Origin: Argopecten irradians
Lineage: Eukaryota
Assembly (NCBI RefSeq): GCF_041381155.1
Contig: NC_091134.1
Coordinates: 61,182,902-61,246,901, forward strand
Direction: 5' to 3'
Length of the DNA: 64,000 nt
The notes under the pieces were generated by a model. The model was not told where the DNA came from. It saw only the letters and a program-made list of their open reading frames with translations, and did no database searches. A program made the position numbers and the translations under genes. Positions 3,596-33,430 of this stretch are shown piece after piece. Position 1 is the stretch's first letter. The number at the start of each line of letters is the position of its first letter.

Positions 3596-4400
3596 TTAGA
3601 TTAGGGTTCGTAAAATAATATTTTGGTATGTGTATTTGCCTAATTTGATGAACTGATATGTGAGTACAATTAAATAAGTAGTGAAATTCGTCACCAATAC
3701 CGTTGGAACAAAGGGGACAAATTCTTTCATTGCGGGTATATTAGCCCATCGTCCCGTTTCTATGGGCAAATGTAAATTAGAAGTACGTAATTTAACAATA
3801 TTTTTTCTATCTTTTTCATTCAGTTTCAATAGATAATTCTCCATTTGAAAATCGTTTTTAAAAACTGTATACATTTTACCTTTTGATGACAAATTCATAT
3901 CATTAAACCACCTTTGAATAAATTGATCCTTAAGTATTTGTTTAATGGTAAATTTTAAATATATTTTGTTCAATGTACAAGATTCCTGTATATTCCATAC
4001 AAAATTTAAGCCTGTCTCATAAAAAATATTTCGCACAAAATCGATCCATTTAAAACTTATGTTTCCATTTACATGCAATTGGTACATTAGTTTATATATT
4101 TTGCTTGACAATTTATCAGTGGAAATTAAATTATACCAAAACATGACCATTCTACATTTCACTTCAATACTCAACGGATATCTACTCAATTCACCATAGA
4201 CTATAAAGTTTGGTGTACTACGTCTCAAACCTAAGATACGTTTACAGAATTGCAAGTGATTTTTTTCAATAAGAAAATACAAATATTGTACATACAAAGT
4301 GAAGGCATCGATGTAGCCAGTTTTTCGATTTATTTCGAGTAAACATAGCTCACCAACAGTCCAAATTGTATCGTAGTCATATGTGTGAGAATGCCTATCA
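3596..4400 (-). mobile_element. Non-LTR retrotransposon (LINE, CR1/L2-like) ORF2 C-terminal fragment
   Basis: The 233-aa ORF contains ..ILGLRRSTPNFIVYGELSRYPL.. and ..KLRTSNLHLPIETGRW... These are motifs typical of the region downstream of RT in CR1/L2-type LINE pol proteins. There is no upstream RT or EN, so it is a fragment. Confidence 0.6.
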
Positions 4401-8747: not shown

Positions 8748-9275
8748 GTCTGAAACAAATCATTCTTTAAAAAATTCAACACTTATCATTGGAAAATTTG
8801 GGTAGTAGACTTAGAATATTGATTCAATAGTATTTAGTAATTAGACTGATGTGGGAGACCAATAGTAACCTTAGTGTCCATCTATATGTCTAAAACTAAA
8901 ACAAAAATTGTCCCATTTCAGTAAAAATTGGTATACAGGAGTATTTGCAGGGGTTACTAGTCATTTACTACTAACTACAGCTAAGGGGTCAACTATATGG
9001 GGTCAGGGCCATTACTGTTGGATTTCAGTTTTCTAATAAGTTTTACTACGATAACCAAATATGATATTGACTTCCCAATCACTAGTCAGTTTTAGTGAGG
9101 ATGATGTTTTAGTGATTTCACGTGCATGTGATTTAATTTGATTCGTAAATTGATTGTACATATTTCACATTTTTTCATCTGCAGGAAAAGGCCATGTAGT
9201 GTACTTACCTGGCAATTTTAAAGTTATCTTGGTATTGAATGTCTCCCCTCCTTAAAATCACCACCTTTTTGGATT

Positions 9276-10935
9276 TTTAGCCCACCATCATCAGATGGTG
9301 GGCTATTTAAATCACCTTTTGTCTGTGGTCCGTCGTCCGTCCGTCCGTCCTTCTTTCCGTCCGTCCGTCCGTTAACAATTCTTGTTACCGCTATTTCTCA
9401 GAAAGTACTGAAGTGATCTTTCTCAAATTTCATATGTAGGTTCCCCTATGGCCCTAGTTGTGCATATTGCATTTTGGGACTGATCAGTTAACAAGATGGC
9501 TGCAAGGTGGCCATCTTGGATTTTGGTAGTTAAAGTTTGTTACCGCTATTTCTCAAAAAGTGCAGAAGGGATCTTTCTCAAATTTTATATGTAGGTTCCC
9601 CTAGGACCCTAGTTGTGCATTTTGCATTTTGGGACGGATCGGTCAACAAGATGGCCGACAGGTGGCCATCTTGGATTTTGGTAGTTAAAGTTTGTTACCG
9701 CTATTTCTCAAAAAGTGCAGAAGGGATCTTTCTCAAATTTTATATGTAGGTTCCCCTATGGCCCTAGTTGTGCATATTGCATTTTGGGACCGTTCGGTCA
9801 AAAATATGGCCGACAGGCGGCCATCTTGGATTTTGATAGTTGAAGTTTATTACCGCTATTTCTCAGAAAGTACTGAAGGGATCTTTCTCAAATTTCATAT
9901 GTAGGTTCCCCTGGGACCCTAGTTGTGCATATTGCATTTTGGGACCGATCGGTCAACAAGATGGCCAACAGGCGGCCATCTTTGATTTTGGTAGTTAAAG
10001 TTTGTTACCGCTATTTCTCAAAAAGTGCTGAAGGGATCTTTCTCAAATTTTATATGTAGGTTCCCCTAGGACCCTAGTTGTGCATATTGCATTTTGGGAC
10101 CGATCGGTCAACAAGATGGCCAACAGGCGGCCATCTTTGATTTTGGTAGTTAAAGTTTGTTACCGCTATTTCTCAAAAAGTGCTGAAGGGATCTTTCTCA
10201 AATTTTATATGTAGGTTCCCCTAGGACCCTAGTTGTGCATATTGCATTTTGGGACCGATCGGTCAACAAGATGGCTGACATGCGACCATCTTGGATTTTT
10301 ATAGTTAAAGTTTGTTACCGCTATTTCTCAGAAAGTACTGAAGGGATCTTTCTCAAATTTCATATGTATGTTCCCCTAGGGCCCTAGTTGTGCATATTGC
10401 ATTTTGGGACCGATCGGTCAACAAGATGGCTGCCATGCAGCTATCATGGATTTTTATAGTTAAAGTTTTTTATTGCTTTTTCTCAGAAAGTATTGAAGGG
10501 ATCTGTCTCAAATTTCATATGTAGGTACCCCTAGGTCCCTAGTTGTGCATATTGTGTTTTGGGACCGATCGGTCAACAAGATGGCCACCTGGCAGCCATC
10601 TTGGATTTTGATAGTTAAAGTTTGTTATTGCTATTTCTAAAAAAGTACTGAAGGGATCTCTCTCAAATTGTATATGCAGGTTCCCCTAGGGCCCTAGTTG
10701 TGCATATTGCATTTTGTAACTATTAGGTCAACAAGATGGCTGCACAGCCGCCATCTTGGATTTCATCGTTGAAGTTTGTTACCACTATTTCTTAGAAAGT
10801 ACTATAGCGATCTATCTCAAATTTTATATGTAGTGTGTTTGAAAAAGTTTGAAAAGCAGGGAAAAGATCCCTCTTTCCATTGTCAGACATAGATAATTCT
10901 TTGGTGGGCGCCAAGATCCCTCTGGGATCTCTTGT
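9276..10935 (-). mobile_element. HINE/DINE-1-like non-autonomous element carrying satellite B. On the + strand it reads, in order:
- TTTAG + hairpin (agcccaccatcatcagatggtgggct)
- (CCGT)n microsatellite 9319-9372
- ~155-bp satellite B x ~9.5 (9383-10835)
- palindromic tail (agatccctctgggatct)
   Basis: Direct reading. The order of hairpin, tetranucleotide microsatellite and tandem array matches the 3-prime to 5-prime layout reported for Helentron-associated HINEs. Confidence 0.6.
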
Positions 10936-11002
10936 TAAGGCAATGTGGTTTTCACTAATTACTACATCTTATTTCTCATATTTTTCATATTTTTATCAAC
11001 AG

Positions 11003-11102
11003 CAGTGTAATGAATCGCCACTTGCTTGGAGCTCTTGCTCGCGTTGGGGCAGGTGCCTTTGAGGGATTTGATAGTAAAGCAAAATCAAAATGGGAAGGCA
11101 AG
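11003..11102 (+). CDS. Gene A exon (S(S)VMNRHLLGALARVGAGAFEGFDSKAKSKWEGK). NAGNAG acceptor at 11002/11005.
   Basis: Acceptor tatcaacag(cag)| and donor ggcaag|gtaaac. The phase is consistent with the previous exon. The peptide resembles the VWA5A region ARASGGTSEFITGKDRMQSK. Confidence 0.65.
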
Positions 11103-11324
11103 GTAAACTGTATTTCTATAAAACTTGGAAGTTTGAAAGTATAAAGTCTTGTTGAGAATGAAATTTTTATTCTTTTATAAAGAAACATGATAAAGTAATA
11201 GTCCTGCTAAGCAGTCCAACAGCAATGTTAACGAAAGTTCTATAATTACATTGTAAATTTTTGCTCCAATTACACATTCTGCTATGTGATAATAGACCTA
11301 AGGAGCTTAATTCATTCACTTGTG

Positions 11325-11590
11325 TTTTTAAGCCCAGCATCATCAGATGATGAGTTAAGTCATATCTTTTTTGCCAGCTATAGTTCTCTGAAATTGTTCT
11401 CAAAAGTTCTGAAAGTATCTTTTCCAAGAGTTTTTAACAATTCAAGTTTGTTATTGCTTCTTCTCAAAATACTGTGTGTTTCTATATCCCTATTGATCTC
11501 TAGGTGTGTGTATTCCATTTTGGAATTGATTTAGAAAACAAAGCCAACTGCAGGTGGCTATCTTAGTTTTGATAATTTAAGTATTAAATG
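11325..11590 (-). mobile_element. Degenerate solo copy of the same element type, with a hairpin remnant (ttaagcccagcatcatcagatgatgag) and about one diverged satellite-B monomer
   Basis: The monomer gttattgcttcttctcaaaatactg...caactgcaggtggctatcttagttttg aligns to the satellite-B unit gttaccgctatttctcaaaaagtg...caagatggccgacaggtggccatcttggattttg. Confidence 0.5.
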
Positions 11591-11868
11591 TTTCCACAAT
11601 AACCACATCTCAAAAGATGTTGGATTATTTATGGTCTAATATTACAAGTTTGCTCCCATTGTCCTTACCTTAGTATTGTTTATACATGTACTCCATTTTA
11701 GGGTCATATGAAAACCAAAACAGGAGAGAAATGAAAAAAGTATAGCTGATATATATAGGTCCTTGATTTAACCGATATCACATTATTCAGTTATGAACCA
11801 TAAGATCCCTCAGATCTCTTGCTAAAATATATACAATACTACATGTACATCATTATATCTGTTTCCAG

Positions 11869-12036
11869 GTGAAGTCACAGATTGCTAAGGCGGGTCAGCC
11901 TGGTTTGACATCAGTTGCTGTCTCTTGGCAACAGGAAGATGGTGCCCCGCCTCCAAAACAAGCACCCAATCAAATCACAGCTCTGTTTAGTGGATCAAGG
12001 ATGGTTGTTTACGGATTTGTAAAGAACTGTTCCAGT
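11869..12036 (+). CDS. Gene A exon (VKSQIAKAGQPGLTSVAVSWQQEDGAPPPKQAPNQITALFSGSRMVVYGFVKNCSS)
   Basis: Acceptor gtttccag| and donor ccagt|gtaagt. It resembles VWA5A ..VSLSWHLPPG..IFRGQRLISYAQL. Confidence 0.7.
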
Positions 12037-12151
12037 GTAAGTTGTTTGTCTATGATTTCCTGTAAGCCTTTGGGAGTCAGAAGTTGACAACCCTTTAATA
12101 ACATGTAACTGTCATATGTTATACAGTTCTATGTAAAACAAACTGGTTACT

Positions 12152-12927
12152 CAGTATTGCCAACTCACTCGATTTCTCCGGGTTGACCCGTTTTTTTAGA
12201 CATTTTAGAATGCATAACCTGATTGACCCGTCTGGTCATCAAATAACTTGATTTTCAGCACTTGTACAAAAGTGTCAAAAAGCTCACAAAAATCACGTCA
12301 GATAAAGCCATAAGCGCAATTTTAATTACATCTCAGGGCTTTAGACTCATATCGGCCTTTGTATAATGCAGGTAGCTATGTTTGTGTTTACACAAACTTT
12401 CATAAAGGTGTGAAATTGTAGCAATTAATCTATTCAGTCATGCATCACAATGTCTATGATCGTTTTTAGCAAGAGCCAGCTAGCAAAATCAGACATGGCC
12501 ATTTAATACTCTTCAAAATCAGTAATAATCTTTTCAAAACTCTTCAAGATTTACTCACATAAATAAAACATAGTCACGTGAACGGTATCCTAGCTGTTGA
12601 AGTAGGCAGACAAGCTAATCATAATGGCTGCCATTTTGTTTAGTCAAAGACAATAGTGAAACCAGACAAAAATCCGGATTTATTTAATAAATATTTAAAA
12701 GATTTTTTAATAATTTTCTTTATTAATTATCAGATATTAATTTCATTATTACAAAAATATTCATAAATATTATTGAATAACAATATGAATATCATAAATA
12801 TATGCATATTCTAGGCTTTAAAAAAGTGTTTAAAATTTCACTCAAATGACCCTTGTTTTGACCCTTTCACCCGTTTTTTCAAGGGTGATCACCTGATTTG
12901 ACCTCATCAGAGGTTGTTGGCAATACT
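12152..12927. mobile_element. MITE candidate, ~775 bp, terminal inverted repeats cagtattgccaac...gttggcaatactg
   Basis: 13-bp perfect TIRs read directly, with subterminal gacccg/cgggtcaa-like repeats. The TSD is not clear. Confidence 0.4.
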
Positions 12928-13177
12928 GGTTTCTGACTGCATAAAATATTATTTAGAAAAGAAGTATTAATATTGTAATTAAGTGTATTTGTGATGTCTA
13001 CTGATGATAGTTTTCTGGGCATTGTGTGAACCACACCTGACATTACTCACCAGTCATATACAGGTGATGCAGTGCTTATATAAGAAATTACCCGCCAACT
13101 CTGTATAGATTGTCTGTAAACTGATTCCATCGCAACATTTAAGGTTCTATTAAGAAAATGTTTTGTTTCTTCTGCAG

Positions 13178-13258
13178 GCAACATTGACTGCTGAAATAGG
13201 CGACCAGGAAATAGCAGCTTTAGTGACCAAATCTGACCGATATGTCACCAAAGGAAAG
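13178..13258 (+). CDS. Gene A exon (ATLTAEIGDQEIAALVTKSDRYVTKGK)
   Basis: Acceptor tcttctgcag| and donor ggaaag|gtaaga. It is 81 nt and phase 0. Confidence 0.6.
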
Positions 13259-13453
13259 GTAAGACAGCTCACAAGTGCTAAACAATAACGTGACGGCATC
13301 AATACATGTGGCGTAACTGCGGCGTGCATTGTAGATGACGTCATCAATATTGACGCATAACAACATTCCTGCGATAATGGCGCGATGAAAAAGCTGAAAA
13401 CCAACTGGAATTTCATCATTTTTTCTACAAAGTATGGGAGAAAAAGAATCAAA

Positions 13454-13552
13454 CATGGGTCTGTCAAGTGGACAAGCCTCGGGTTGACCGGCCAAAATCT
13501 TTCACTCGGGTTGAGATATCCCTGTCCACTTGACAGACCCATGTAAGATCCT
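13454..13552. mobile_element. Small hairpin MITE. It has 24-bp perfect inverted repeats (catgggtctgtcaagtggacaag / cttgtccacttgacagacccatg) with a ~50-bp loop. A related half-copy lies at about 29245-29275.
   Basis: Direct reading. Confidence 0.55.
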
Positions 13553-13792
13553 AGTAGTCTCCTATGATCCAGTTTGCTAGTTTTTCTTAGATCTGTACTA
13601 GAAAAAGTAATTCTCCCATAATCTGTCAATGTCCCGTTTCCAGTTTGTAACATGTACATGTACTTGGAAAAGTAAAACAAAGGACTCACATGTGACTTTC
13701 CTTGATTTAAGCATGATATGTTGATTTTTAGTTTCAGTTTTAAGATGTTTGTACAGATTCAGGGAATTTCCACTAACATTTTGATGTTACAG

Positions 13793-13873
13793 ATTTTACA
13801 CCGTTTGGCAGCCAAAGCAATCATTCGTGATTGGGAGGATGGACTGCTCTCCCCAGATGGTCTAAATCAACAG
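13793..13873 (+). CDS. Gene A exon (ILHRLAAKAIIRDWEDGLLSPDGLNQQ)
   Basis: Acceptor ttgatgttacag| and donor caacag|gtaaga. HRLAA is a VWA5A-like motif. Confidence 0.7.
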
Positions 13874-14688
13874 GTAAGATGTCTTTTTAAGAATATTACT
13901 TTATCAACTGTGGTTTATATTTCTATACTGTTGTGTGTGGTATTTTAATACCATTGGTTTGGAAAAGTTTAGTTCAACATATGTGTATGTTGTTCAAGAC
14001 ACAAACATGTATTTCTTATAAAAGTGTTTTGAAACTCTTCTGGAATCTTCTAAGCCTTGACACTTTGAGCTGCACACAGGATTTACCTAGTAACTGGTTT
14101 ATAAGTGATTGTCCAAAAAAGGATCACATATAAACCGGGCAGCGGTCCAAAATCTTAATATATACCGGCTACAGGTCTCTTATAGACCAGTTAAGGGTAC
14201 ATTCTGTGCCTTCCATGAAATGTAACACAAAAGGAACAAAAGGGTTTACACTATATTAAACTGTGTTTTAAGGGTTAAATAGACAATCTTTGGACACCTT
14301 CTTCTAAGTTACATATAGGCCAATAGCCTTATTATTTCTTAAAATGAATGGCTTTGAAAATTAATTCATGATTACAGGAATGAAGTAAGTTTTAAGTTTT
14401 AATAAGGATTGTTAACTCGATGTCCAAGGCCTTGGCAGTTGATATAAACATGGGCCTGTAGAATGCTTGAGTTTTGGAATGTGCTAGGTTTATTGATGGA
14501 AGAAAGTCAGAATACCCGGAGAAAAACCACTGACCAGCAGTCAGTACCTAGCAATTCGAATTCACGACCCAGAGGTTGAAGGCTTGTGGTTACACCCCCC
14601 CCTAAATTTGCTCTTGTTATAGAACATCTCATTGACATTAACTTTTGTATACATAGTTTGACCGTCTGAATTAATGTTTTTATTTCAG

Positions 14689-14790
14689 AGAATGAAGATG
14701 GACCTAAAAGGCTATGTTATAAAGCTTAGCAAAGAGTTCTGTATAGTGACTTCACTAACTAGCTTCATCGCAGTGGAAAAACGTGAAAAG
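14689..14790 (+). CDS. Gene A exon (RMKMDLKGYVIKLSKEFCIVTSLTSFIAVEKREK)
   Basis: Acceptor tttatttcag| and donor gaaaag|gtctga. TSFIAVE compares with SSFTAFIAI in VWA5A and ITIH. Confidence 0.7.
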
Positions 14791-15209
14791 GTCTGAGAGA
14801 AAACTTAATTTCAAAAATGTAACTTTGAAGTTAAGAGTTTGTATTTTGTTGTACTTTTGGCCGTTCTGCTCTTCCTATCAATATATATATATAGAAACAA
14901 CCACATTATGGATATTTCTAAATAAATGTCACAGTAGGTTATTTTGTACTATGCCCCCTATGAAACAACTCTGTTGTTTCTATTGCATTATTATAGCTTT
15001 AGTTTTAAAACAATCTTGAATACTTTAGTACAAAAAGTCTGAAATTTTCTGATTATAATAATAGAAAGACATTTATAGAAATGAGATAATATTTTCTTCT
15101 AACAAGGTATTTTGTTATATCTTTACATATGAGCTGTTTATAAAAGGCTGACAAAATCATTGTGTGTTGACTTGTAATAGTGGTGATGTACTTGTCTGAT
15201 TAATAATAG

Positions 15210-15335
15210 GATGAAGAAATGACATGTGCTCCGGATATCTATGAACTCTTGGATGAAGTGCGAGAAAATGTTTGTTCATTCCTTCGCCTCGACATCACCC
15301 CAAATGATTTTGAAGCAGCTCTAGATTCTGATGAT
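15210..15335 (+). CDS. Gene A exon (DEEMTCAPDIYELLDEVRENVCSFLRLDITPNDFEAALDSDD)
   Basis: Acceptor ttaataatag| and donor gatgat|gtaagt. It is 126 nt and phase 0. There is no homology support beyond frame and splice sites. Confidence 0.5.
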
Positions 15336-15417
15336 GTAAGTGTGTTTTTAGATATAATCAAGCCTTCAGATTACTAAAAGGTTATTAGTAAGGCTTGTAA
15401 GACAAATTTACTTCAGA

Positions 15418-16382
15418 TAGGGCTGAAACGATTAGTAATTTTTGTATTCAATTATTTGGTCTCATGTAATCGATTACTAATCGATTAATCGTTTGAATTG
15501 AAGGCAACTATATTGTTTCACTACTGACTACTGAAAACGTCCGCCATGTTTTGTTATCAACTAATAATAACACCTACCGTATAATATGACAGAGGACATG
15601 CCTTATATAATATAAGCCTACCAATATCCCAATGATATTTAAATCTCTGCAACAAATAAGAATAGATTTATTGACAAAACAAACGTATTTTATCCCAAAT
15701 AAGCTCTGAATTCCGTTCCTGTATTGTCTTCCGTAACATCGTTTAAATCAAGTCTGCTAACCCGCTGTTTTGACGTGACCTTCACACGTACGACTAATCA
15801 ACCAAATCTGGATCGCCACGGAGCAACATGACCAAATTTTCGTCAATGAACTTTTTTATTTCCGTGATCAAAAAAACAAAATAAATCAACAACTCTTATA
15901 TTCAATTAGAATATGAACAAAAACATTCTTTTTATATGATAAACACATGCAATAGTAAAATCTAAATGTTCAAGATTACTGCTCCTTCCGCTCCCGAGCG
16001 TCCCGGCGGCGATTAGGCCTCCGTGACGTAACAACATGGAGTCGATCGCTAGTGAAAATTGGCGAACAGCGTGTTGCAAGCTTTCTCATGACATCCACTT
16101 TTTCATTGATTAATGACTTTAACTTCCACAGAGACGTAATTTAACAAGTATTTCTCACATCATATATGCTTTGTTGAGTTCAAAACATGTACATAAAGAG
16201 ATGAAACTCCAGTCGGAATGGCTTACTCAGAAATCCATGATCTGTCAACGTGTTTAGTCAGCTTACAATGCACTGGCTATGCATGTTACGATTAACGATT
16301 AATAAAATCTTTAATCGATTATCAGCAATTAGCTTCATTAATCTAATCGCCTCCGATTATTCGACTAATCGTTTCAGCCCTA
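15418..16382. mobile_element. Non-autonomous hAT-superfamily DNA transposon (~965 bp). It has 18-bp perfect TIRs (TAGGGCTGAAACGATTAG) and an 8-bp target-site duplication ACTTCAGA (15410-15417 and 16383-16390).
   Basis: TIR and TSD read directly. An 8-bp TSD plus a TAGGG.. terminus is the hAT hallmark. There is no transposase ORF inside. Confidence 0.75.
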
Positions 16383-17194
16383 ACTTCAGACCATAGGCAC
16401 ATTTTTAGTAGGGGGGAGGAGGGCAGTATTCTTGAATCAACGATCCCCACCTGTCCGTAGAAAAAAATGTCCAGACACTTCCACCTTATTTATTGAATCA
16501 ATTTCAGTGAAACTTGGCAGCAACGCTGGCAGGGCCATGTGTAGATGTGTATGCAGGTTTTATCTTATAAAAAATTTGGTTGCCAAGGTAAACAGGTCAC
16601 TGTACACAGGTTTTATAATGTAGCCAATGACTAAGCTTGTTGTTAAATTTTGGATAATTTTCTTCAAACTTGGTGAATTGTTGTAACACATGGATATCTA
16701 TAATTTGACACACCACATGATTCCATAGCAGTTTTTATGGAAAAAAGATTGTACATAGATAATCTCATTTACTCTCTGATATCTTAAGCATGCACTATGA
16801 TTACCAGGTACCAGGTGAGCGATTTTATTGTGTTCATGAAACTTAACCCTGTTATCTGACGTAAATGACCATACAATGTAGTTTGTTTCTGCCGAATAAT
16901 TATGTAATGAGAGCAATATCTGACATTTAAATCAATTTGTAAGTTTTAATTGTAATATTAAATACTTCACAATTACTTAGTCGGTATATCCAAAGATGTA
17001 ATGTAAATAAAAAACAAAAAGAAAAAAAAACCTCTGAGCCTTGTGTTTCCGTAAGGTTGTCAGTTATACACATATTTCATAACTTAATATTAATGTCATA
17101 CAATTGAGACACAAAACCTTAATTAACCACTTTGTTGGAACTGTCCAAAAGTATATACTTTTCATAGACATACAGAATTCTGATTTATTCTCAG

Positions 17195-17233
17195 GAATCC
17201 ACCAGTTATTCGACAGATGATACCGGTGAACAT
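17195..17233 (+). CDS. Gene A micro-exon (ESTSYSTDDTGEH)
   Basis: Acceptor tgatttattctcag| and donor gaacat|gtaagt. It is 39 nt and phase 0. Support is weak because it is short. Confidence 0.4.
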
Positions 17234-17274
17234 GTAAGTAATACATCAATTATTGTATGGATGTACCTTAAGGT

Positions 17275-18512
17275 GGCTAAGATGTGATATTGTTTATGTA
17301 GACAGAAGATCAAGTAAATGAGGTAGAGGTGTGATATTGTTTATGTAGACAGAAGATCAAGTAAATGAGGTAGAGGTGTGATATTATTTATGTAGACAGA
17401 AGATCAGGTAAATGAGGAAGAGATGTGATATTGTTTATGTAGACAGAAGATCAGGTAAATGAGGCTGAGATGTGATATTGTTTATGTAGACAGAAGGTCA
17501 GGTAAATGAGGTAGAGATGTGATATTGTTTATGTAGACAGAAGATCAGGTAAATGGGGTAGAGATGTGATATTGTTTATGTAGACAGAAGATCAAGTAAA
17601 TGAGGTAGAGATGTGATATTGTTTATGTAGACAGAAGATCAGGTAAATGAGGTAGAGATGTGATATTGTTTATGTAGACAGAAGATCAGGTAAATGAGGT
17701 AGAGATGTGATATTATTTATGTAGACAGAAGATCAGGTTAATGAGGTAGAGATGTGATATTGTTTATGTAGACAGAAGTTTAGTAAAAATGGGTAGTGAT
17801 ATGATATTGTTTATGTAGACAGAAGATCAGGTAAATGAGGTAGAGATGTGATATTGTTTATGTAGACAGAAGATCAGGTTAATGAGGTAGAGATGTGATA
17901 TTGTTTATGTAGACAGAAGATCAGGTAAATGAGGCTGAGATGTGATATTGTTTATGTAGACAGAAGATCAGGTAAATGAGGAAGAGATGTGATATTGTTT
18001 ATGTAGACAGAAGATCAGGTAAATGAGGTAGAGATGTGATATTGTTTATGTAGACAGAAGACCAGGTTAATGAGGTAGAGATGTGATATTGTTTATGTAG
18101 ACAGAAGACCAGGTTAATGAGGTAGAGATGTGATATTGTTTATGTAGACAGAAGACCAGGTTAATGAGGTAGAGATGTGATATTGTTTATGTAGACATAA
18201 GATCAGGTAAATGAGTTAGAGATGTGATATTGTTTATGTAGACAGAAGATCAGGTAAATGAGGTAGATATGTGATATTGTTTATGTAGACAGAAGATCAG
18301 GTAAATGAGGTAGAGATGTGATATTGTTTATGTAGACAGAAGATCAAGTAAATGAGGTAGAGATGTGATATTGTTTATGTAGACAGAAGATCAGGTAAAT
18401 GAGGTAGAGATGTGATATTGTTTATGTAGACAGAAGATCAAGTAAATGAGGTAGAGATGTGATATTGTTTATGTAGACAGAAGATCAGGAAATGAGGTAG
18501 AGATGTGATATT
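17275..18512. repeat. 37-bp minisatellite (unit ~tgtgatattgtttatgtagacagaagatcaggtaaatgaggtagaga) x ~33, left block
   Basis: Direct reading. It sits in a gene A intron. Confidence 0.9.
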
Positions 18513-18514
18513 GT

Positions 18515-20370
18515 TTTTAGGTCATCTGACCCGAAGGGTCAGGATGACCTATAGTCATCATGTTTCATCCGTCATCGTCCGCCGTCCGCCGTCCGCCGTG
18601 CGTTAACTTTTCACATTTTGAACTTCTTCTCAAGTTCTACCAGTGCAATTTGGCTGAAACTTGCATGAAATGATCCTGACATGGTCCCGACAAAGTGTTG
18701 TTATTTTTCGGGTCGATCCGAAATCAAAGATGGCCGCCACAGCCGCCATCTTGAAAACACATTTTGAACTTCTTCTCAAGTTCTACCGGTGCGATTTGAC
18801 TGAAACTTGCATGAAATGATCCTGACATGGTCCCGACAAAGTGTTGTTAATTTTCAGGTCGATCCGAAATCCAAGATGGCCGCCACAGCCACCATCTTGA
18901 AAACACATTTTGAACTTCTTCTAAAGTTCTACTGGTGCGCTGAAACTTGCATGAAATGATCCTGACATGGTCCTGACAAAGTGTTGTTATTTTTCGGGTC
19001 GATCCGAAATCCAAGATGGCCGCCACAGTCGCCATCTTGAAAACACATTTTGAACTTCTTCTCAAGTTCTACTGGTGCGATTTGGCTGAAAATTGCATGA
19101 AATGATCCTGACATGGTCCTGACAAAGTGTTGTTATTTTTCGGGTCGATCCGAAATCCAAGATGGCAGCCACAGCCGCCATCTTGAAAACACATTTTGAA
19201 CTTCTTCTCAAGTTCTACTGGTGCGATTTGGCTGAAACTTGCATGAAATGATCCTGACATGGTCCCGACAAAGTGTTGTTATTTTTCGGGTCGATCCCAA
19301 ATCCAAGATGGCCGCCACAGCCGCCATCTTGAAAACACATTTTGAACTTCTCAAGTTCTACCGGTGCGATTTGGCTGAAACTTGCATGAAATGATCCTGA
19401 CATGGTCCCGACAAAGTGTTGTTATTTTTCGGGTCGATCCGAAATCCAAGATGGCCGCCACAGCCGCCATCTTTAAAACACATTTTGAACTTCTCAAGTT
19501 CTACCGGTGCGATTTGGCTGAAACTTGCATGAAATGATCCTGACATGGTCCCGACAAAGTGTTGTTATTTTTCGGGTCGATCCGAAATCCAAGATGGCCG
19601 CCACAGCCGCCATCTTGAAAACACATTTTGAACTTCTTCTCAAGTTCTACCGGTGCGATTTGACTGAAACTTGCATGAAATGATCCTGACATGGTCCAAA
19701 CAAAGTGTTGTTATTTTTCGGGTCGATCCGAAATCCAAGATGGCCGCCACAGCCGCCATCTTGAAAACACATTTTGAACTTCTTCTCAAGTTCTACTGGT
19801 GCGATTTGACTGAAACTTGCATGAAATGATCCTGGCATGGTCCCGACAAAGTGTTGTTATTTTTCGGGTCGATCCGAAATCCAAGATGGCCACCACAGCC
19901 GCCATCTTGAAAACACATTTTGAACTTCTTCTCAAGTTCTACCGGTGCGGTTTGACTGAAACTTGCATGAAATGATCCTGACATGGTCCTGACAAAGTGT
20001 TGTTATTTTTTAGGTTGATACGAAACCCAAGATGGCAGCCACAGCCGCCATCTTGAAAACATATTTCGAACTTCTTCTCAAGTTCTACCGGTGCGATTTG
20101 GCTGAAACTTGCATGAAATGATCCTGACATGGGCCCGACAAAGTATTGTTACATCTCTGGTTGATCACAAATCGAAGCTGGCTACCATGACACTCTATCT
20201 AATTAATTTCCTATATGTTAAGGCCCTTGGGCCTCTTGTTTGAAATAAAATTTGTTGAAAGAAATTGAAAATGATCCTGACATGGTCCTGACAAAGTGAC
20301 ACCATATATAATTAATTTTACTATTGCCAAGGTAGTCAGATGACCGTTAAGGCCCTTTGGGCCTCTTGTT
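18515..20370 (-). mobile_element. HINE-like element carrying satellite C, inserted inside the 37-bp minisatellite. On the + strand it reads, in order:
- TTTTAG + hairpin (ggtcatctgacccgaagggtcaggatgacc)
- (CCGT/CCGC)n
- ~146-bp satellite C x ~10.5 (18603-20150)
- duplicated tail ..gtcagatgaccgttaaggccctttgggcctcttgtt
   Basis: The minisatellite unit is split (..gatattgttt | element | gtagacataagatcagg..) and resumes in phase. The tail contains gtcagatgacc, which is complementary to the head stem ggtcatctgac (an asymmetric TIR). Confidence 0.65.
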
Positions 20371-22195
20371 GTAGACATAAGATCAGGTAAATGAGGAAGA
20401 GATGTGATATTATGAAGACAGAAGATCAGGTAAATGAGGAAGAGATGTGATATTGTTTATGTAGACAGAAGATCAGGTAAATGAGGTAGAGATGTGATAT
20501 TGTGTATGTAGACAGAAGATAAGGTAAATGAGGTAGAGATGTGATATTGTTTTTGTAGACAGAAGATAAGGTAAATGAGGAAGAGATGTGATATTGTTTT
20601 TGTAGACAGAAGATCAGGTAAATGGGGTAGAGATGTGATATTGTTTATGTAGACAGAAGATCAGGTAAATGAGGTAGAGGTGTGATATTGTTTATGTAGA
20701 CAGAAGATCAGGTAAATGAGGTAGAGATGTGATATTGTTTATGTAGACAGAAGATCAAGTAAATGAGGTAGAGGTGTGATATTGTTTATGTAGACAGAAG
20801 ATCAAGTAAATGAGGTAGAGATGTGATATTGTTTATGTAGACAGAAGATCAGGTAAATGAGGAAGAGATGTGATATTGTTTATGTAGACAGAAGATCAAG
20901 TAAATGAGGTAGAGGTGTGATATTGTTTATGTAGACAGAAGATCAAGTAAATGAGGTAGAGGTGTGATATTGTTTATGTAGACAGAAGATCAGGTTAATG
21001 AGGTAGAGATGTGATATTGTTTATGTAGACAGAAGACCAGGTTAATGAGGTAGAGATGTGATATTGTTTATGTAGATAGAAGATCAGGTAAATGAGGTAG
21101 AGATGTGATATTGTTTATGTAGACAGAAGATCAGGTTAATGAGGTAGAGATGTGATATTGTTTATGTAGACAGAAGGTCAGGTAAATGAGGTAGAGATGT
21201 GATATTGTTTATGTAGACAGAAGGTCAGGTAAATGAGGTAGAGATGTGATATTGTTTATGTAGACAGAAGGTCAGGTAAATGAGGTAGAGATGTGATATT
21301 GTTTATGTAGACAGAAGATCAGGTAAATGAGGTAGAGATGTGATATTGTTTATGTAGACAGAAGATCAGGTAAATGAGGTAGAGATGTGATATTGTTTAT
21401 GTAGACAGAAGACCAGGTAAATGAGGTAGAGATGTGATATTGTTTATGTAGACAGAAGATCAGGTTAATGAGGTAGAGATGTGATATTGTTTATGTAGAC
21501 AGAAGATCAGGTAAATGAGGTAGAGATGTGATATTGTTTATGTAGACAGAAGATCAAGTAAATGAGGTTGAGATGTGATATTGTTTATGTAGACAGAAGA
21601 TCAGGTAAATGAGGTAGAGATGTGATATTGTTTATGTAGACAGAAGATCAGGTAAATGAGGTAGAGATGTGATATTGTTTATGTAGACAGAAGATCAGGT
21701 AAATGAGGTTGAGATGTGATATTGTTTATGTAGACAGAAGATCAGGTAAATGAGGAAGAGATGTGATATTGTTTATGTAGACAGAAGATCAGGTTAATGA
21801 GGTAGAGATGTATATGTTTATGTAGACAGAAGATCATAATGAGGTGTGTGATATGTTATGTAGACAGAAGATCAGGTAAATGAGGTAGAGATGTGATATT
21901 GTTTATGTAGACAGAAGATCAGGTAAATGAGGTAGAGATGTGATATTGTTTATGTAGACAGAAGATCAGGTAAATGAGGTAGAGATGTGATATTGTTTAT
22001 GTAGACAGAAGATCAGGTAAATGAGGTAGAGATGTGATATTGTTTATGTAGATAGAAGATCAGGTAAATGAGGTAGAGATGTGATATTGTTTATATAGAC
22101 AGAAGGTAAGGTAAATGAGGTAGAGATGTGATATTGTTTATGTAGATAGAAGATCAGGTAAATGAGGTTGAGATGTGATATTGTGTAGACAAAAG
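20371..22195. repeat. 37-bp minisatellite, right block x ~49
   Basis: Same unit as the block at 17275-18512. Confidence 0.9.
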
Positions 22196-22610
22196 ATAAG
22201 GTAAATAGAGGTCAATCATTTAAATCGATGCATGTCATAATATTCTTCATGGATTGTAACCAAATTTGGCCAGAAACATCCTCTAAGAGTTTGTATAGTT
22301 ATTGGCTCTGACCCCCTGGGGCAGGAGGGGCGAGGTTTAATAGGAGAAATAGAGGTAATTCCTTTAAATCGCTACTAGTCATAGAGTTCTGCATTAAATT
22401 TGGCTAGAAACATCTTTTGAGGAAGGGGAACAGACTGTTTATAAATTTTGGCTGTAAAGCAGAATAAGTGGAGCCTAATGGGGAAATTAGTAAATATCTA
22501 AATTTACTTCAGAAAAGAAACAATGAACCTGTAATCAGAACCTTACTTGGCATTACAAACCAGGTGAGCGATACAGGCCCTCTTGGCCTCTTGTTTAGAT
22601 GATTTCAATA
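22196..22610 (-). mobile_element. Headless fragment of a satellite-D element: ~1.7 monomers plus tail (..accaggtgagcgatacaggccctcttggcctcttgttt)
   Basis: It matches the 31054-33057 element at the monomer and tail. Confidence 0.55.
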
Positions 22611-25289: not shown

Positions 25290-26850
25290 ATAATAGCTTA
25301 TAGTCATACATGTTGTGTCCATCGTCATGCACCTTGTGTAAACTTTTAATTCAAATGACTTCTTTTCAATAAACAAAGGGCCCAGCATATTCATATTGGG
25401 CCTGCGGCATGCTGGCATAAAGTGGTACCAAGTTTGTTCGAATGAATGACCTTGACCTTCATTTCAGGTCACAGGGGTAAAAAAGGCTAAAATATTTAAA
25501 CAACTTCATCTCTGTAACCAAAAGACCCAGGTTACTCAAATTGGACCTGTTGCATGCTGGCACAAAGGGCTACCAAGTTTGTTCAAATAAATGACCTTGA
25601 CCTTTATTCAAGGCCACAGGAATCAAAAAGGCTAAAATATTAAAGACTTCTTCTCAATTGCTAAGAGCCCATGAGACCTGATATTGGGTCTGTAGCATGT
25701 TGGGGTGAAAGGCTACTAAGTCTGTTGAATGAATGACTTTGACCTTCCTTCAAGGTCACAGGAGTCAAATAGGCTTCAATCTTTTAATCACTTTTTGTGA
25801 ATAACTAAGAGGCCGGGGTACTGATATTGGGTCTGAAGCATGCTTGGGTGAAGAGCTACTGTAACCAAGTATGTTTAAATGAATGACCTTGATTTTCATT
25901 TCAAGATTACATGAATCAGATACAATCTTACTGTGTATTTCAGTTTAACTAGATATTGTATTAGCAGTCAGATGACCATTAAGTCACTTTGGGCCTCTCG
26001 TTGAGCATTATTTGCTCACCTGCCCAAAGAGCAATTGAGCTTATATGTCCGTCTATCTGACATGAACATTTCCCTTTAAATAATTTCTTCTCCAAAAGTA
26101 GCAGACTTAGCGTCCTTAAACTTGACTTATATTATACTGGGATAAAAGGCTACTAAATAAGTTTATTCTAATGAATGACTTTGAATGAAGGTTAAGGTCA
26201 CATATGTCAAATAACCTAAAATCTTTTAACGTTTTTTTTTTGTTAATAACCAAGAGGCCAGGAAACCTGATATTGGGTCTGTGACATGCTGGGATAATGA
26301 CTGAATGTCAAGGTCACAGGGGTCAAAATAGTGAAAATCTTTAAACAACTTAAAATAACTAAGAGGCCTAGAGACCGGTTATTTGGACTGTGCCATGCTG
26401 GGACAATAGGCTACAAAGCTTGTTCAAACAAATGACCTTAACCTTTATTCAAGGTCACAGCTGTCAAATATTGGAAAAATATACAACTACTGTACTGGAG
26501 AATTACTAGTATATGTGTAATACTTTAATTGTTAGTTGAAGAAAAGGTGAACATTTTCAGTCTATTTGATTATTTCATATTGATGTGAAGTTGTTTTGTC
26601 CTACATACTGTATACTTGGAAGCCTGCTGTATTTTGTCAGGAAGCCTGCTGTATTTTGTCAGGAAGCCTGCTGTATTTTGTCAATAGTCAGATGGGCCAT
26701 TTTTGGCACCATATAAAATTATATGCTCCCATTAGTTTAAAGCCAGATGGGTGCATTAGGGGCCATTATAGCTTTTACACATCTTTGTTACATTTTGTAT
26801 CATATCTCAGGTGACTGTTAAGGCCCATGGACCTCTCTTTTGTTGTACCA
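25290..26850 (-). mobile_element. Two adjacent satellite-A (~145-bp unit) HINE-like elements:
- The first is 5-prime-hairpin-truncated: array 25380-25960, tail ..gtcagatgaccattaagtcactttgggcctctcgttg to about 26013.
- The second has a variant head tttgctcacctgcccaaagagcaattgagcttat, about 3 monomers, a (ggaagcctgctgtattttgtca)x3 block at 26616-26682, and a tail at about 26800-26850.
   Basis: Satellite-A unit: ..gctaccaagtttgttcaaatgaatgaccttgaccttcattcaaggtcacaggggtcaaataggctaaaatctttaaa.. The same family appears at 35120-35400 and 53470-54200. Confidence 0.55.
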
Positions 26851-29389: not shown

Positions 29390-30957
29390 ATATATTGATG
29401 ATGTTATGCTTTTGTCTTAAGTATGGAGCCATCCTTTATGAAGTCACAGTGGCATATGTGAGTAAAGCCAGTCTGCCATATGGCAGTCATTGCTTTATGT
29501 CAATCTGGCAAAATTTCCAACTATGCAGTCAATGATGTCCCTAAGCATCATTATAGAATCTCGCCATGTTTTATTTTGAAATCCTTGTTGACCTTGTTTT
29601 GATAATAAATAATGTAATTAAAGACTTCTTTGCTTGCAAATAATTGGAGCATTCAGAATTTAAAAAAGTAGTTGTTGTAAAAATTCCAGTTACCTCTGTT
29701 TGTTACATTTTTGTATATCACCACATTGAATGTTTACTTTTTATCATCAGTAGAGTGTCAGAAGGGGAGTCAATACCTTCATCTTTACTGGTGACGGAAA
29801 AAATGGTGAGTTTACACAGATAAGCATTCCAGATTCATATTAATCCACCGGCATGCTGGAATGACTAGATCACTAAATAAAGTATTTCAGTGAAAGTTAC
29901 TCTGTGTTCTATTTTGTCTTTGTATGTAACAGTTATCTATCCTTGAGTTATCTATTTGGCCCACTTCATTTAAAATGCCAGGTGGAGTCAGTCATGTGGC
30001 TGGCTTATAAAAGGCTTGTGTCAATAAAATTCTGCCAGTAAGCTAATTAAATCCAAATTTGTATTTAGAAAATGTGATGTTTTCCCAGATAATTACGGTA
30101 ATATTTATTCCTGACTGGCATGGTAAGTGTGTTTTTAGCTCACCTGGCCTGAAGGGCCGGTGAGCTTATATATATTGATGATGTTTGCTTTTGTCTTAAG
30201 TATGGAGCCATCCTTTATGAAGTCACAGTGGCATATGTGAGTAAAGCCAGTCTGCCATATGGCAGTCATTGCTTTATGTCAATCTGGCAAAATTTCCAAC
30301 TATGCAGTCAATGATGTCCCTAAGCATCATTATAGAATCTCGCCATGTTTTATTTTGAAATCCTTGTTGACCTTGTTTTGATAATAAATAATGTAATTAA
30401 AGACTTCTTTGCTTGCAAATAATTGGAGCATTCAGAATTTAAAAAAGTAGTTGTTGTAAAAATTCCAGTTACCTCTGTTTGTTACATTTTTGTATATCAC
30501 CACATTGAATGTTTACTTTTTATCATCAGTAGAGTGTCAGAAGGGGAGTCAATACCTTCATCTTTACTGGTGACGGAAAAAAATGGTGAGTTTACACAGA
30601 TAAGCATTCCAGATTCCAGATTCATATTAATCCACCGGCATGCTGGAATGACTAGATCACTAAATAAAGTATTTCAGTGAAAGTTACTCTGTGTTCTATT
30701 TTGTCTTTGTATGTAACAGTTATCTATCCTTGAGTTATCTATTTGGCCCACTTCATTTAAAATGCCAGGTGGAGTCAGTCATGTGGCTGGCTTATAAAAG
30801 GCTTGTGTCAATAAAATTCTGCCAGTAAGCTAATTAAATCCAAATTTGTATTTAGAAAATGTGATGTTTTCCCAGATAATTACGGTAATATTTATTCCTG
30901 ACTGGCATGGTAAGTGTGTTTTTAGCTCACCTGGCCTGAAGGGCCGGTGAGCTTATG
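29390..30957. repeat. Tandem duplication of a ~780-bp unit (29390-30169 and 30170-30957). Each copy ends with the hairpin tttttagctcacctggcctgaagggccggtgagcttat.
   Basis: The two copies are >98% identical by eye. Indels include ttatgc/tttgc and A6/A7. Confidence 0.85.
29750..29804 (+). CDS. Gene A candidate exon (-S RVSEGESIPSSLLVTEKM), in copy 1 of a 780-bp tandem duplication. The paralogous copy at 30530-30585 has an extra A that breaks the frame.
   Basis: Acceptor tttttatcatcag| and donor aaaatg|gtgagt. Only copy 1 keeps the phase chain intact. Confidence 0.35.
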
Positions 30958-33057
30958 TCATGGCGCGGCGTCCGTCGTCGTCCGTGCCGTCCGTCCGTCC
31001 GTCCGTCCGTCCGTCCGTCGTCCGTCCGTCCGTCCGTCGTCCGTCCGTCCGTCAACATTTCCTTTAAATCGCTACTAGTCATAGAGTTCTGCATGGATTG
31101 TAACCAAATTTGGCCACAAACATCCTTGGGGGAGGGGGAACAGAACTTGTATAAATTTTGGCTCTGTCCCCCCCGGGGCAGGAGGGGCGGGGCCCAATAG
31201 GGGAAATAGAGGTAAATCCTATAAATCGCTACTTGTCCTAGAGTTCTGCATGGATTGTAATCAAATTTGACCACAAACATCCTTGGGGGAGGGGGAACAG
31301 AACTTGTATAAATTTTGGCTCTGGTCCCTCAGGGGCAGGAGGGGCGGGGCCCAATAGGGGAAATAGAGGTAAATCCTATAAATCGCTACTTGTCCTAGAG
31401 TTCTGCATGGATTGTAACCAAATTTGACCACAAACATCCTTGGGGGAGCAGAAACAGAACTTGTATATAAATTTTGGCTCTGGTCCCCCAGGGGCAGGAG
31501 GGGCGGGGCCCAATAGGGGAAATAAAGGTAAATCCTTTATATCGCTACTTGTAATAGAGTTCTACATGAATTGTAACCAAATTCGGCCACAAACATCCTT
31601 GGGGGAAGGGGAACAGAACTTGTGTAAATTTTGACTCTGGTCCCCCGGGGGCAGGAGGGGCGGGGCCCAATAGGGGAAATAGAGGTAAATCCTTTAAATC
31701 GCTACTAGTCATTGAGTTCTGAATGGAATGTAACCAAATTTGGCCACAAACATCCTTGGGGGAAGGGGAACAGACCTTGTATAAATTTTGGCTCTGACCC
31801 CCGGGGGCAGGAGGGGCGGGGCCCAATAGGGGAAATAGAGGTAAATCCTTTAAATCTCTACTAGTCATAGAGCTCTACATGAATTGTAACCAAATTTGGC
31901 CACAAACATCCTTGGGGGAAGGGGAACAGAACTTGTATAAATTTTGGTTCTGATCCCCCAGGGGCAGGAGGGGCGGGGCCCAATAGGGGAAATAGAGGTA
32001 AATCCTTTATATCGCTACTTGTCATAGAGTTCTGAATGGAATGTAACCAAATTTGGCCATAAACATCCTTATGGGAAGGGGAAGAGAACTTGTATAAATT
32101 TTGGCTCTAGTCCCCCGGGGGCAGGAGGGGCGGGGCCCAATAGGGGAAATAGAGGTAAATCCTTTAAATCGCTACTAGTCATTGAGTTCTGAATGGAATG
32201 TAACCAAAATTTGGCCACAAACATCCTTTGGGGAAGGGGAACAGAACTTGTATAGATTTTGGCTCTGACCCCCCCGGGGGCAGGAGGGGCGGGGCCCAAT
32301 AGGGGAAATAGAGGTAAATCCTTTATATCGCTACTTGTCATAGAGTTCTGAATGGAATGTAACCAAATTTGGCCATAAACATCCTTTGGGGAAGGGGAAG
32401 AGAACTTGTATAAATTTTGGCTCTAGTCCCCCGGGGGCAGGAGGGGCGGGGCCCAATAGGGGTAATAGAGGTAAATCCTTTAAATCGCTACTAGTCATTG
32501 AGTTCTGAATGGAATGTAACCAAAATTTGCCACAAGCATCCTTTGGGGAAGGGGAACAGAACTTGTATAGATTTTGGCTCTGACCCCCCCGGGGGCAGGA
32601 GGGGCGGGGCCCAATAGGGGAAATAGAGGTAAATCCTTTAAATTGCTACTAGTCATAGAGTTCTGCATGGATTGAAACCAAATTTGGCCACAAACATCCT
32701 TGGGGGAAGGGGAACAGAACTTGTATAAATTTTGACTCTGGCCCCCCGAGGACAGGACGGGTGGGGCCCAATAGGGGAAATAGAGGTAAATCCTATAAAT
32801 CACTTCTTGTCCTAGAGTTTTTCTTGGATTGTGACCAAATTTAGCCATAAACATCCTTGGGGGAAGGGGAACAGAACTTGTATAAATTTTGGCTCTGACC
32901 CCCTGGGGGCGGGAGGGGTGGGGCCCAATAGGGGATTTAGAGGTTAATATTAAAATTCCTTCAGAAAAGAAACAATGAACCTGTATTCAGAACATTACTT
33001 GGCATTACAAACCAGGTGAGCGATACAGGCCCTCTGGGCCTCTTGTTTACAAACAAC
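30919..33057 (-). mobile_element. HINE-like element carrying satellite D. On the + strand it reads, in order:
- hairpin agctcacctggcctgaagggccggtgagct
- (CGTC/CCGT)n microsatellite 30958-31053
- ~157-bp satellite D x12 (31054-32935)
- tail ..ttcagaaaagaaacaatgaacctgta..accaggtgagcgatacaggccctctgggcctcttgtttac
   Basis: Direct reading. The satellite-D monomer contains the GC-box-like aggaggggcggggccc. Confidence 0.6.
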
Positions 33058-33179: not shown

Positions 33180-33430
33180 CAGTGCAGATATGCATAATTG
33201 ATATCTGAACAAGACATATTCATCTTTATTTAGGTCATCTAACCTGGAGAGTCAGGATGACCTATATTACAGTGCAAATATGCATAATTGATATCTGAAC
33301 TAGATATATTCATCTTTATTTAGGTCATCAAATTAAACCTGAACGGTCAGGATGACCTATATTCATCATGCTTTGTCTGTTGTCATGCTCTGTTTGTAAA
33401 CATTTAAACCACTTCTTAATAACCGATGTA
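33180..33430 (-). mobile_element. Degenerate element. It has two tandem copies of a ~90-bp segment, each with the hairpin head (taggtcatctaacctggagagtcaggatgacct / taggtcatcaaattaaacctgaacggtcaggatgacct), then a decayed microsatellite and the start of a satellite-A monomer.
   Basis: Compared with the 53395 element head, tgtcatcatgc..cgtc..aaacttttcatttaaatgacttcttc. Confidence 0.45.

Follow-up and report, generated by a model that had tools for sequence, protein, structure and literature searches.

The stretch of Argopecten irradians DNA analysed here (64,000 nucleotides of contig NC_091134.1, hereafter the window) contains two tandem arrays, satellites B and C, whose monomers share a palindrome that had been noticed in an initial annotation. 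We show that both satellites form the central (core) repeats of two non-autonomous transposons of the HINE/pearl/DTC84 type, derived from Helentrons and called elements B and C. The two elements are built alike. TTTTTAG leads into a hairpin in which a subterminal repeat pairs with its complement; a (GTCC/CCGT)n microsatellite and the array follow, and a short tail holds the 3' copy of the subterminal repeat, a stem-loop rich in GC and a terminal (T)CTTGTT. We assign them to the HINE type because these substructures match the definition of Cg_HINE from Crassostrea gigas, which comprises a 5' subterminal inverted repeat (subTIR), an inverted repeat (IR), a GTCY microsatellite, repeats resembling satellite DNA (satDNA) and a 3' subTIR with a palindrome, inserted at TT or T-rich sites without target-site duplication (TSD) (PMC7492417). 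The subTIR/IR hairpin, the order of microsatellite and array, and the 3' subTIR with terminal stem-loop are found in both B and C. T-rich insertion without TSD can be seen on element C only, which sits in the T run of a variant unit (GATATTGTTTTTGTAGACA) of a 47-bp satellite whose array resumes in phase behind it with no visible TSD. The two parts of this split satellite lie at 17280-18516 (26 copies) and 20370-22212 (40 copies). Element C also has a second copy of its 3' end, lacking the subTIR, at 20222-20240. When the monomers are phased from the microsatellite junction, 4-12 nt separate the palindrome from the following monomer in both satellites, a location near the end of the core repeat as in pearl/DTC84 elements. 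Elements B and C are ordinary members of the known HINE/pearl kind. The list of open reading frames (ORFs) contains no Helentron Rep/helicase ORF in the 64-kb window, and no Rfam RNA family was found in 9000-21000. A coding origin of the arrays was considered and rejected, the ORFs of 40-72 aa changing frame with every monomer and not being conserved between families; a protein search with a B-array ORF gave no match.

The relation to DTC84/pearl elements of Donax trunculus and C. virginica extends to the flanks. Like B and C, these elements have core repeats of ~160 bp, linked to (ACGG)n, with a palindrome near the repeat end (PMC3879986). The DTC84 flank begins with AACAAGAG..., which on the opposite strand gives the ...CTCTTGTT ends of B and C; reverse-complemented, the DTC84 left-flank primer AACAAGAGCACCGCTGGGCG likewise corresponds to 3' ends of this type (PMC3879986). 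However, the DTC84 palindrome, TTGTCCGGACAA, is an uninterrupted 12-mer within a stretch that varies less among copies (PMC3879986), whereas B and C carry a 9+9 pair with a spacer of 9-10 nt that is not less variable within the arrays and has a hypervariable centre in B.

The palindrome of satellites B and C is confined to the two arrays. The pattern AAGATGGC-N(5-14)-GCCATCTT has 15 exact matches in the window, six in array B (9493-10757) and nine in array C (18727-20054). None lies outside the arrays in the 64 kb (shuffle expectation 0.00), so that the search beyond the satellites proposed in the initial annotation returned no copy within the window. All 30 copies of the 9-mer CAAGATGGC in the window likewise fall within arrays B and C, compared to 0.2 expected. 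The annotation had located the palindrome correctly but had given it a uniform spacer of 10 nt. The gap between the 9-mers is 9 nt in all six B matches (27-nt unit) and 10 nt in all nine C matches (28-nt unit), and the N10 pattern therefore matches C only. That each monomer contains the palindrome was overstated, since both 8-mers are intact in 6/9 full monomers of B and in 9/11 monomers of C. The arms are identical between B and C at 9/9 plus 9/9 positions (18/18). Just upstream lies a short second box common to both satellites, TTTTGGGACCGATCGG in B and TTTTCGGGTCGATCCG in C. B monomers also carry a further perfect palindrome of 12 nt, GACCGATCGGTC, 4 nt upstream of the shared one (9632-9643 and equivalents), with relatives in C (GGTCGATCC) and in two of the metagenome loci described below, L070 and L074 (GGTCCGATC / GGTCGGCGGATC); this 12-nt palindrome and its relatives may represent a second conserved box. 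All positions are collected in Table 1.

Table 1. Elements B and C, their parts and the palindromes of their monomers (positions in the window; TRF, Tandem Repeats Finder; ssDNA, single-stranded DNA)
Feature	Position	Strand	Basis
Element B, complete HINE-like, carries satellite B	9279..10936	+	architecture; TTTTTAG at 9274-9280
Element B 5' subTIR AGCCCACCATC and complementary IR GATGGTGGGCT (hairpin)	9279..9304	+	sequence
Element B left-flank (GTCC)n microsatellite	9328..9372	+	TRF, period 4, 11.5 copies
Satellite B, 155-bp core repeats, 9.4 copies, 90% matches	9382..10833	+	TRF, monomer alignment
B palindrome 1, CAAGATGGC-N9-GCCATCTTG	9492..9518	.	exact search
B palindrome 2 (copy given in the initial annotation)	9647..9673	.	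exact search
B palindrome 3, left arm degenerate AAATATGGC	9802..9828	.	monomer alignment
B palindrome 4, right arm GCCATCTTT	9957..9983	.	exact search, monomer alignment
B palindrome 5, right arm GCCATCTTT	10112..10138	.	exact search, monomer alignment
B palindrome 6, right arm ACCATCTTG	10267..10293	.	monomer alignment
B palindrome 7, right arm GCTATCATG	10422..10448	.	monomer alignment
B palindrome 8	10577..10603	.	exact search, monomer alignment
B palindrome 9, spacer TGCACAGCC like satellite C spacer	10732..10758	.	exact search, monomer alignment
Element B right flank: 3' subTIR GGTGGGCG, palindrome AGATCCC-TCT-GGGATCT (subTIR and palindrome 10903-10930), CTTGTT end	10903..10936	+	sequence
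Element C, HINE-like, carries satellite C, inside 47-bp satellite	18519..20370	+	TRF, sequence
Element C 5' subTIR GGTCATCTGACCC and IR GGGTCAGGATGACC, hairpin -13.3 kcal/mol as ssDNA	18520..18549	+	sequence, folding
Element C left-flank (CCGT)n-type microsatellite	18567..18601	+	sequence
Satellite C, 146-bp core repeats, 10.6 copies, 94% matches	18612..20182	+	TRF, alignment
C palindrome 1, (A)AAGATGGC-N10-GCCATCTTG	18726..18753	.	N10 pattern search
C palindrome 2	18872..18899	.	N10 pattern search
C palindrome 3, right half GTCGCCATCTTG = mouse L1 Tf YY1 motif	19012..19039	.	pattern search; PMC11602158
C palindrome 4	19158..19185	.	N10 pattern search
C palindrome 5	19304..19331	.	N10 pattern search
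C palindrome 6	19447..19474	.	N10 pattern search
C palindrome 7	19590..19617	.	N10 pattern search
C palindrome 8	19736..19763	.	N10 pattern search
C palindrome 9	19882..19909	.	N10 pattern search
C palindrome 10	20028..20055	.	N10 pattern search
Element C right flank: 3' subTIR GGTAGTCAGATGACC, palindrome GGCCC-TTT-GGGCC (subTIR and palindrome 20331-20363), TCTTGTT end	20331..20370	+	sequence, folding

YY1, called Pho in Drosophila, is a zinc-finger factor that binds GCCAT, and an orthologue is to be expected in the host as in Metazoa generally. The initial annotation had noted that the half-site resembles the YY1 core, and the likeness proved closer than it held: as far as sequence can tell, the half-sites are identical to tested YY1 sites. 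The right half of B, CGGCCATCTTGG, is contained in the YY1 consensus probe CGCTCCCCGGCCATCTTGGCGGCTGGT (core GGCCATCTTGG) used in electrophoretic mobility shift assays (EMSA) and reporter assays (PMC4763200). Mouse L1 Tf monomers contain an experimentally validated YY1 motif, GTCGCCATCTTG (PMC11602158), to which the right half of C, (A)GTCGCCATCTTG / GCCGCCATCTTG, corresponds; all 12 nt are identical in C monomer 3, and CGCCATCTTG is common to the motif and to all C monomers with an intact right arm. In the mouse motif the GCCAT core and the T in ..CTTG are essential, a T-to-G change in ..CTTG lowers YY1 binding, and the site is needed for the promoter activity of the monomer and for synergy between tandem monomers (PMC11602158). 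The GCCAT core belongs to the half-site consensus of B, C and all 23 external sub-families introduced below, in the latter as required by the search. The variable arm position corresponds to the n of GCCATnTT (G 0.83, A 0.16 on the AAnATGGC strand), and the T's are invariant. A GC-rich extension 5' of the core (..GCCGCCAT / ..GCGGCCAT) is present at the unfixed positions +10 to +12. This extension fits the YY1 consensus, AAGATGGCGGC, and the left half-site of B and C equals the YY1 box of the human L1 5' untranslated region, CAAGATGGCCG. Among the papers on bivalve satDNA and HINEs that our search returned, there is no mention of YY1.

The closest worked example is mouse L1 Tf, in which, as in C, tandem monomers (~200 bp) borne by a transposon each contain GTCGCCATCTTG (PMC11602158). 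However, L1, unlike B and C, is a retrotransposon that moves autonomously and requires a promoter, belongs to another class of elements in another phylum and has one site per monomer instead of an inverted pair; YY1 binding has been shown there, whereas for B and C there is a likeness of sequence. Cg_HINE has the same modular plan as B and C, with a GTCY/GTCC-type microsatellite and repeats of ~150-180 bp, and its related flanks can bear divergent repeats, but the likeness is one of architecture, as the paper describes neither a YY1-like box nor a palindrome within the monomer (PMC7492417). A motif search of its supplement gave no match, the supplement files containing no monomer sequences. 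BIV160/Cg170, an old bivalve satDNA family related to the core repeats of pearl CvA, has two well-conserved boxes in otherwise diverged monomers of ~160 bp, to which no function has been assigned (Plohl et al. 2010, via PMC5139131); the likeness is to the phenomenon. The CENP-B box, often invoked for satDNAs of bivalves and nematodes, is likewise a short protein-binding box in fast-evolving satellite monomers, but it differs in sequence and protein and is a single 17-bp site tied to centromeres, whereas the B and C arrays are short, dispersed and transposon-borne.

Copies of the box outside the window were sought with the pattern CAAGATGGCY-N(8,9)-GCCATCTTG in IMG/VR, a JGI/ENA metagenome set and GTDB. 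Unbiased evidence is provided only by the flanks, by neighbouring monomers and by the comparison of B with C. In the metagenome set we found at least 120 loci, about 75 of them in low-GC, evidently eukaryotic contigs that are concentrated in a few host-associated assemblies, and TRF recognized at least 13 palindrome-bearing arrays of 145-161-bp monomers in low-GC contigs. Locus L074 has a full HINE frame with termini unrelated to those of the window elements, L110 and L070 have TTTTTAG-hairpin-(GTCC)n frames like them, and other loci show GTCG/CGAC/GACA microsatellites at the edge of the array. L110 (1-1269 of Ga0224499_10059379) represents an entire HINE-like element; its array has a higher-order unit of 322 bp, in which a 151-bp monomer with the inverted pair alternates with a 171-bp monomer with two half-sites in direct orientation. 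The GTDB scan yielded five small low-GC contigs, mis-binned in metagenome-assembled genomes of one project, that contain the identical 28-mer of satellite C in a different unit of ~420 bp within another TTTTTAG-hairpin-(GTCC/GTCT)n element. These contigs (L159, L160, L167, L182 and L147, i.e. JABABL, JABAAY, JAAZZY, JABABV and JAAZZI) are evidently HINE-like DNA of animal hosts; their bins are labelled Mycoplasmatales, Chlamydiia or Gammaproteobacteria.

In a BLAST comparison of the window with the metagenome loci only the microsatellite and the palindrome matched. The remainders of the family consensus sequences are mostly at noise level towards each other (z ~3-7 for some pairs, ~0 for many) and form a loose, weak network. 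We infer that the box is probably the one block surviving across widely diverged families of core repeats (~145-160 bp). Other matches were set aside. Of 18 in IMG/VR, 17 lie in one phage gene coding for ..IQDGGRTAILK.., a chance palindrome irrelevant here; in these phage contigs (L001-L018) CAAGATGGC-N9-GCCATCTTG is purely coding and near the start of a conserved gene. About 45 matches in the metagenome set and nearly all in GTDB fall into high-GC bacterial coding sequence or terminators and were treated as background.

The half-sites were analysed across the 23 sub-families with equal weight, considering only positions not fixed by the search. The half-site extends to AT(C/T)CAAGATGGC(C/G)GC, with A at -3 (0.74), T at -2 (0.91), C/T at -1, C/G at +10, G at +11 (0.79) and C at +12 (0.64). 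Agreement between the two halves at the flanks is not above that expected for independence (6 observed versus 9.6 expected at -1, 7 versus 8.3 at +10), and conservation without covariation means that the flanks are not maintained as base pairs. Deviations at the variable arm position (AAnATGGC) were seen in 12 pairs, 11 of which are asymmetric. In L110 half-sites are also arranged as direct repeats (CCAAGATGGCCGCC-TGGTTT-CCAATATGGCCGCC), and other spacings were seen as well. As the flanks are conserved without covariation, changes in the arms are asymmetric and half-sites are found in other arrangements, the box would be better described as two independent, asymmetric recognition sites placed head to head than as a stem. 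The same observations favour the suggestion of the annotation that the inverted pair consists of protein-binding half-sites, which is thereby supported in part.

A structural signal would be a different explanation: as a hairpin in the ssDNA of rolling-circle transposition or replication, the palindrome could act as pause, template-switch site or pseudo-terminus that makes and resizes the array, the stem mattering more than the sequence. We regard this as doubtful, although it is the most serious of the alternatives. Folding gives -13.8 kcal/mol for the palindrome of B and -10.4 kcal/mol for that of C (z ~ -6), on a par with the 5' hairpin of the elements (-13.3 kcal/mol) and above the strength of the 3' one (-6.0 kcal/mol). 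The DTC84 core repeats each end in an unrelated palindrome, TTGTCCGGACAA, that has been proposed as a hotspot of changes in array length (PMC3879986), and the E arrays of the window have a different palindrome at the equivalent place. The first palindrome follows the microsatellite by ~105-125 nt in B, C, L070 and L160-type elements and so marks the 3' end of the first monomer, and the hypervariable spacer of B (28% versus 4.9%) is what an exposed loop would lead one to expect. However, the stem ends at the 9-mers despite conserved flanks, covariation is absent both from the flanks and from the variable arm position, and half-sites in direct repeat cannot pair. Moreover, the same sequence and not just any palindrome recurs in families with unrelated remainders and termini, and the D monomers of the window have no significant hairpin.

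Within the arrays the palindrome does not stand out. The arms of B are changed in 7/162 cells (4.3%), compared to 54/1097 (4.9%) at non-CpG positions elsewhere, and those of C in 3/180 cells (1.7%; 2/170 or 1.2% at non-CpG arm positions), compared to 1.0% at non-CpG positions elsewhere. CpG positions are changed in 10-15% in both arrays, except for 33% in the B spacer. Among 147 windows of 9 nt in B the arms rank 18 and 71, neither being best conserved, and in the largest external family the major-allele frequency is 0.904 in the arms and 0.878 in the rest (one seed monomer per contig dropped). In none of B, C and this family does the palindrome lie in a segment of low variability as described for DTC84. 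The spacer of B is changed in 23/81 cells (28%). This 9-nt centre (9501-9509 and equivalents) is hypervariable also at non-CpG positions, for which an exposed hairpin loop, dense CpG decay and old polymorphism are candidate explanations.

The comparison between the families gives another picture. The consensus monomers of B and C align with a score of 77, compared to 32 ± 5 for shuffled sequences. Without the palindrome they are collinear with 52% identity over all columns and 67% over ungapped columns, which is marginally significant, 14/500 shuffles reaching the global and 5/500 the local score. The view that the two satellites are otherwise dissimilar thus holds roughly, with a collinear remainder that is weakly better than shuffles. 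By the refuting condition of the annotation, a palindrome no more conserved than the rest of the monomer, the outcome is divided: this applies within arrays, whereas in the comparison of families no other block comes near the palindrome in conservation. Satellite D (157 bp) was considered as a third member and rejected, as its similarity is not significant (21/300 shuffles for B-D, 64/300 for C-D) and it has neither box nor hairpin.

The collinear remainder of B and C and the loose network of remote similarities between families could also indicate a passive relic. All families would then derive from one ancestral monomer, perhaps a fragment of a promoter or first exon captured by a Helitron, and the box would be its slowest-decaying remnant without present function. 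Helitrons do capture promoters and exons, AAG ATG GCG GC is also a Kozak-type start, and inserted copies decay neutrally. Nevertheless, we consider this origin unlikely, more so than the hairpin signal, since the 18/18 match and the conserved flanks persist while the remainder is at noise in most pairs of families, nothing in the arms would slow their mutation, the centre, being rich in CpG, ought to be lost more quickly, and the ORFs that begin with the ATG are short and lack conservation between families.

The window contains three further HINE-like elements, D (30924-33047), E1 (~25290-26003) and E2 (53395-54338). The left flank of E2 (53395 on) is nearly identical to 18519-18611 of element C, including hairpin, microsatellite and the first ~20 nt of the monomer, and its 3' subTIR CAGGTGAGCG matches the D-type 5' end; with this mixture of a C-like left flank and a D-type 3' subTIR, flanks and repeats look like reshuffled cassettes. 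The E arrays (145 bp; 25358-25844 and 53476-54158) have another palindrome, TGACCTTGA-N7-TCAAGGTCA, at the equivalent position of the monomer (-7.8 kcal/mol as ssDNA hairpin). We take TCAAGGTCA to be a nuclear-receptor half-site of the SF-1/ERR type. Element D consists of a TTTTTAGCTCACCTGGCC hairpin, a long (CGTC)n microsatellite (30969-31053) and 12 repeats of 157 bp, whose most conserved block is GGGGCGGGGCCCAATAGGGG; the monomer is without the AAGATGGC box and without a significant hairpin. GGGGCGGGGCCCAATAGGGG reads as a GC box of the Sp1 type directly adjoining a CCAAT box. At 33222-33262 there is a solo 5' hairpin of the C type.

These arrangements bear on the idea that the box is the recognition or cleavage site of the Rep/helicase of an autonomous Helentron, repeated in each monomer. 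Within the window the box is found only in mobile elements and near the monomer boundary, and HUH endonucleases recognize hairpins beside their nick sites. However, C and E2 have near-identical termini and carry different monomer palindromes, L074, L110 and L160 have unrelated termini and hairpins and carry the same box, the box is not similar to either terminus of its element, and a Helentron Rep gene is absent from the window. We therefore regard a Rep site as very improbable. The alternative of the initial annotation, recognition by a transposase, is weakened accordingly, as box and termini vary independently both between C and E2 and in elements of other hosts.

The explanation we favour, at about an even chance of being right, is that a conserved host zinc-finger factor of the YY1 family binds the paired half-sites in the core repeats and that selection in the propagating master copies maintains this binding. 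Each half-site would be occupied by the YY1-family protein of the host, so that each monomer would offer a pair of sites and the array a platform of many sites. Selection would act solely on copies that keep propagating, and this would account for a box that is conserved between families and hosts yet decays neutrally in inserted arrays. The gain to the element is a matter of speculation; it might lie in transcription, in stability of the array, or in chromatin that is open or unmethylated and so facilitates rolling-circle mobilisation. That C and E2 share the 5' hairpin and differ in the monomer palindrome, whereas elements with unrelated termini share the box, means that the box does not track the termini. 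This speaks in favour of a conserved factor of the host rather than a Rep specific to the element. In two further families the YY1-like core is accompanied by another promoter-type motif, the cAMP response element (CRE) TGACGTCA, at a distance of 7-12 nt, which also counts in favour of the explanation.

Several points weigh against a YY1-family factor as the selected partner. It is not evident why a non-autonomous DNA transposon should require a promoter. Within B, C and the largest external family, conservation of the arms does not exceed that of the rest, and CpGs in the palindrome decay as they do elsewhere, so that nothing points to protective occupancy in the germ line. The conservation of the arms in external families is given by construction, exact arms having been the search pattern. 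The palindromes do fold as stable hairpins, and the commonest asymmetric state of the arms (G/A) still allows a G·T wobble. That the partner would be YY1 rather than another GCCAT-reading protein is suggested by resemblance.

A wider proposal, which we put forward tentatively and hold to be rather unlikely, is that a YY1-type bipartite box, often accompanied by motifs of housekeeping promoters, defines an ancient superfamily of nucleosome-sized Helentron core repeats in several invertebrate hosts. Such repeats would be mobile cassettes serving as platforms for transcription factors; binding of host factors would keep master copies competent for transposition and seed satellite-like regulatory arrays. 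The motifs named for this reading are the CRE TGACGTCA and the ETS-like CCGGAAGT, and in sister families a GC box with CCAAT or pairs of TCAAGGTCA. TGACGTCA was seen 34 times in 194 kb compared to 2.9 expected, a post hoc observation that includes many copies elsewhere in the contigs.

Individual loci have further motifs next to the box. The five GTDB contigs also carry AAAATGGCGGCTATGACGTCAT and CCAAGATGGCCGCCATGACGTCAT, in which the YY1-like core abuts the CRE palindrome. In the L019 family (L019, L024, L025, L036, L065, L088, L111, L120 and L129) ATGACGTCAT lies 12 nt from the palindrome, the L059 unit (6589 and 6877) has ACCGGAAGT plus TGACGTCA, and the large 145-bp family (L021/L100-type loci) has CCGGAAAT/CCGGAAGT next to the box.

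Reports of conserved boxes in bivalve satDNA and in pearl/HINE core repeats go back about 15 years, but no function has been assigned to them; 'CENP-B-like' or 'transposase-related' motifs are what has usually been suggested. The identity of the box with YY1 sites, the behaviour of its halves and its recurrence across unrelated families and hosts appear to be new. Together these properties make the function of the box accessible to direct experiment by EMSA, chromatin immunoprecipitation (ChIP) or DNA affinity purification sequencing (DAP-seq) with a named 14-mer, and the box links Helitron-type elements of invertebrates to the tandem-monomer logic of L1 Tf.

The window has some other features. 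A 7-kb array of a 38-bp satellite (39852-46877), unrelated to the palindrome, comprises 183 copies with a higher-order period of 114 bp. An open frame of 470 aa at 36532-37944 encodes a proline-rich protein with 81-bp repeats (PPPPPPMLGKDFTSSGPPRPPRAPSAK); it has no exact match on record and is probably a real exon of a formin/WASP-like gene. On the minus strand, an ORF of 233 aa (3596-4297) resembles the C-terminal part of ORF2 of non-LTR retrotransposons, the best public protein (ENA metagenome) being 48% identical.

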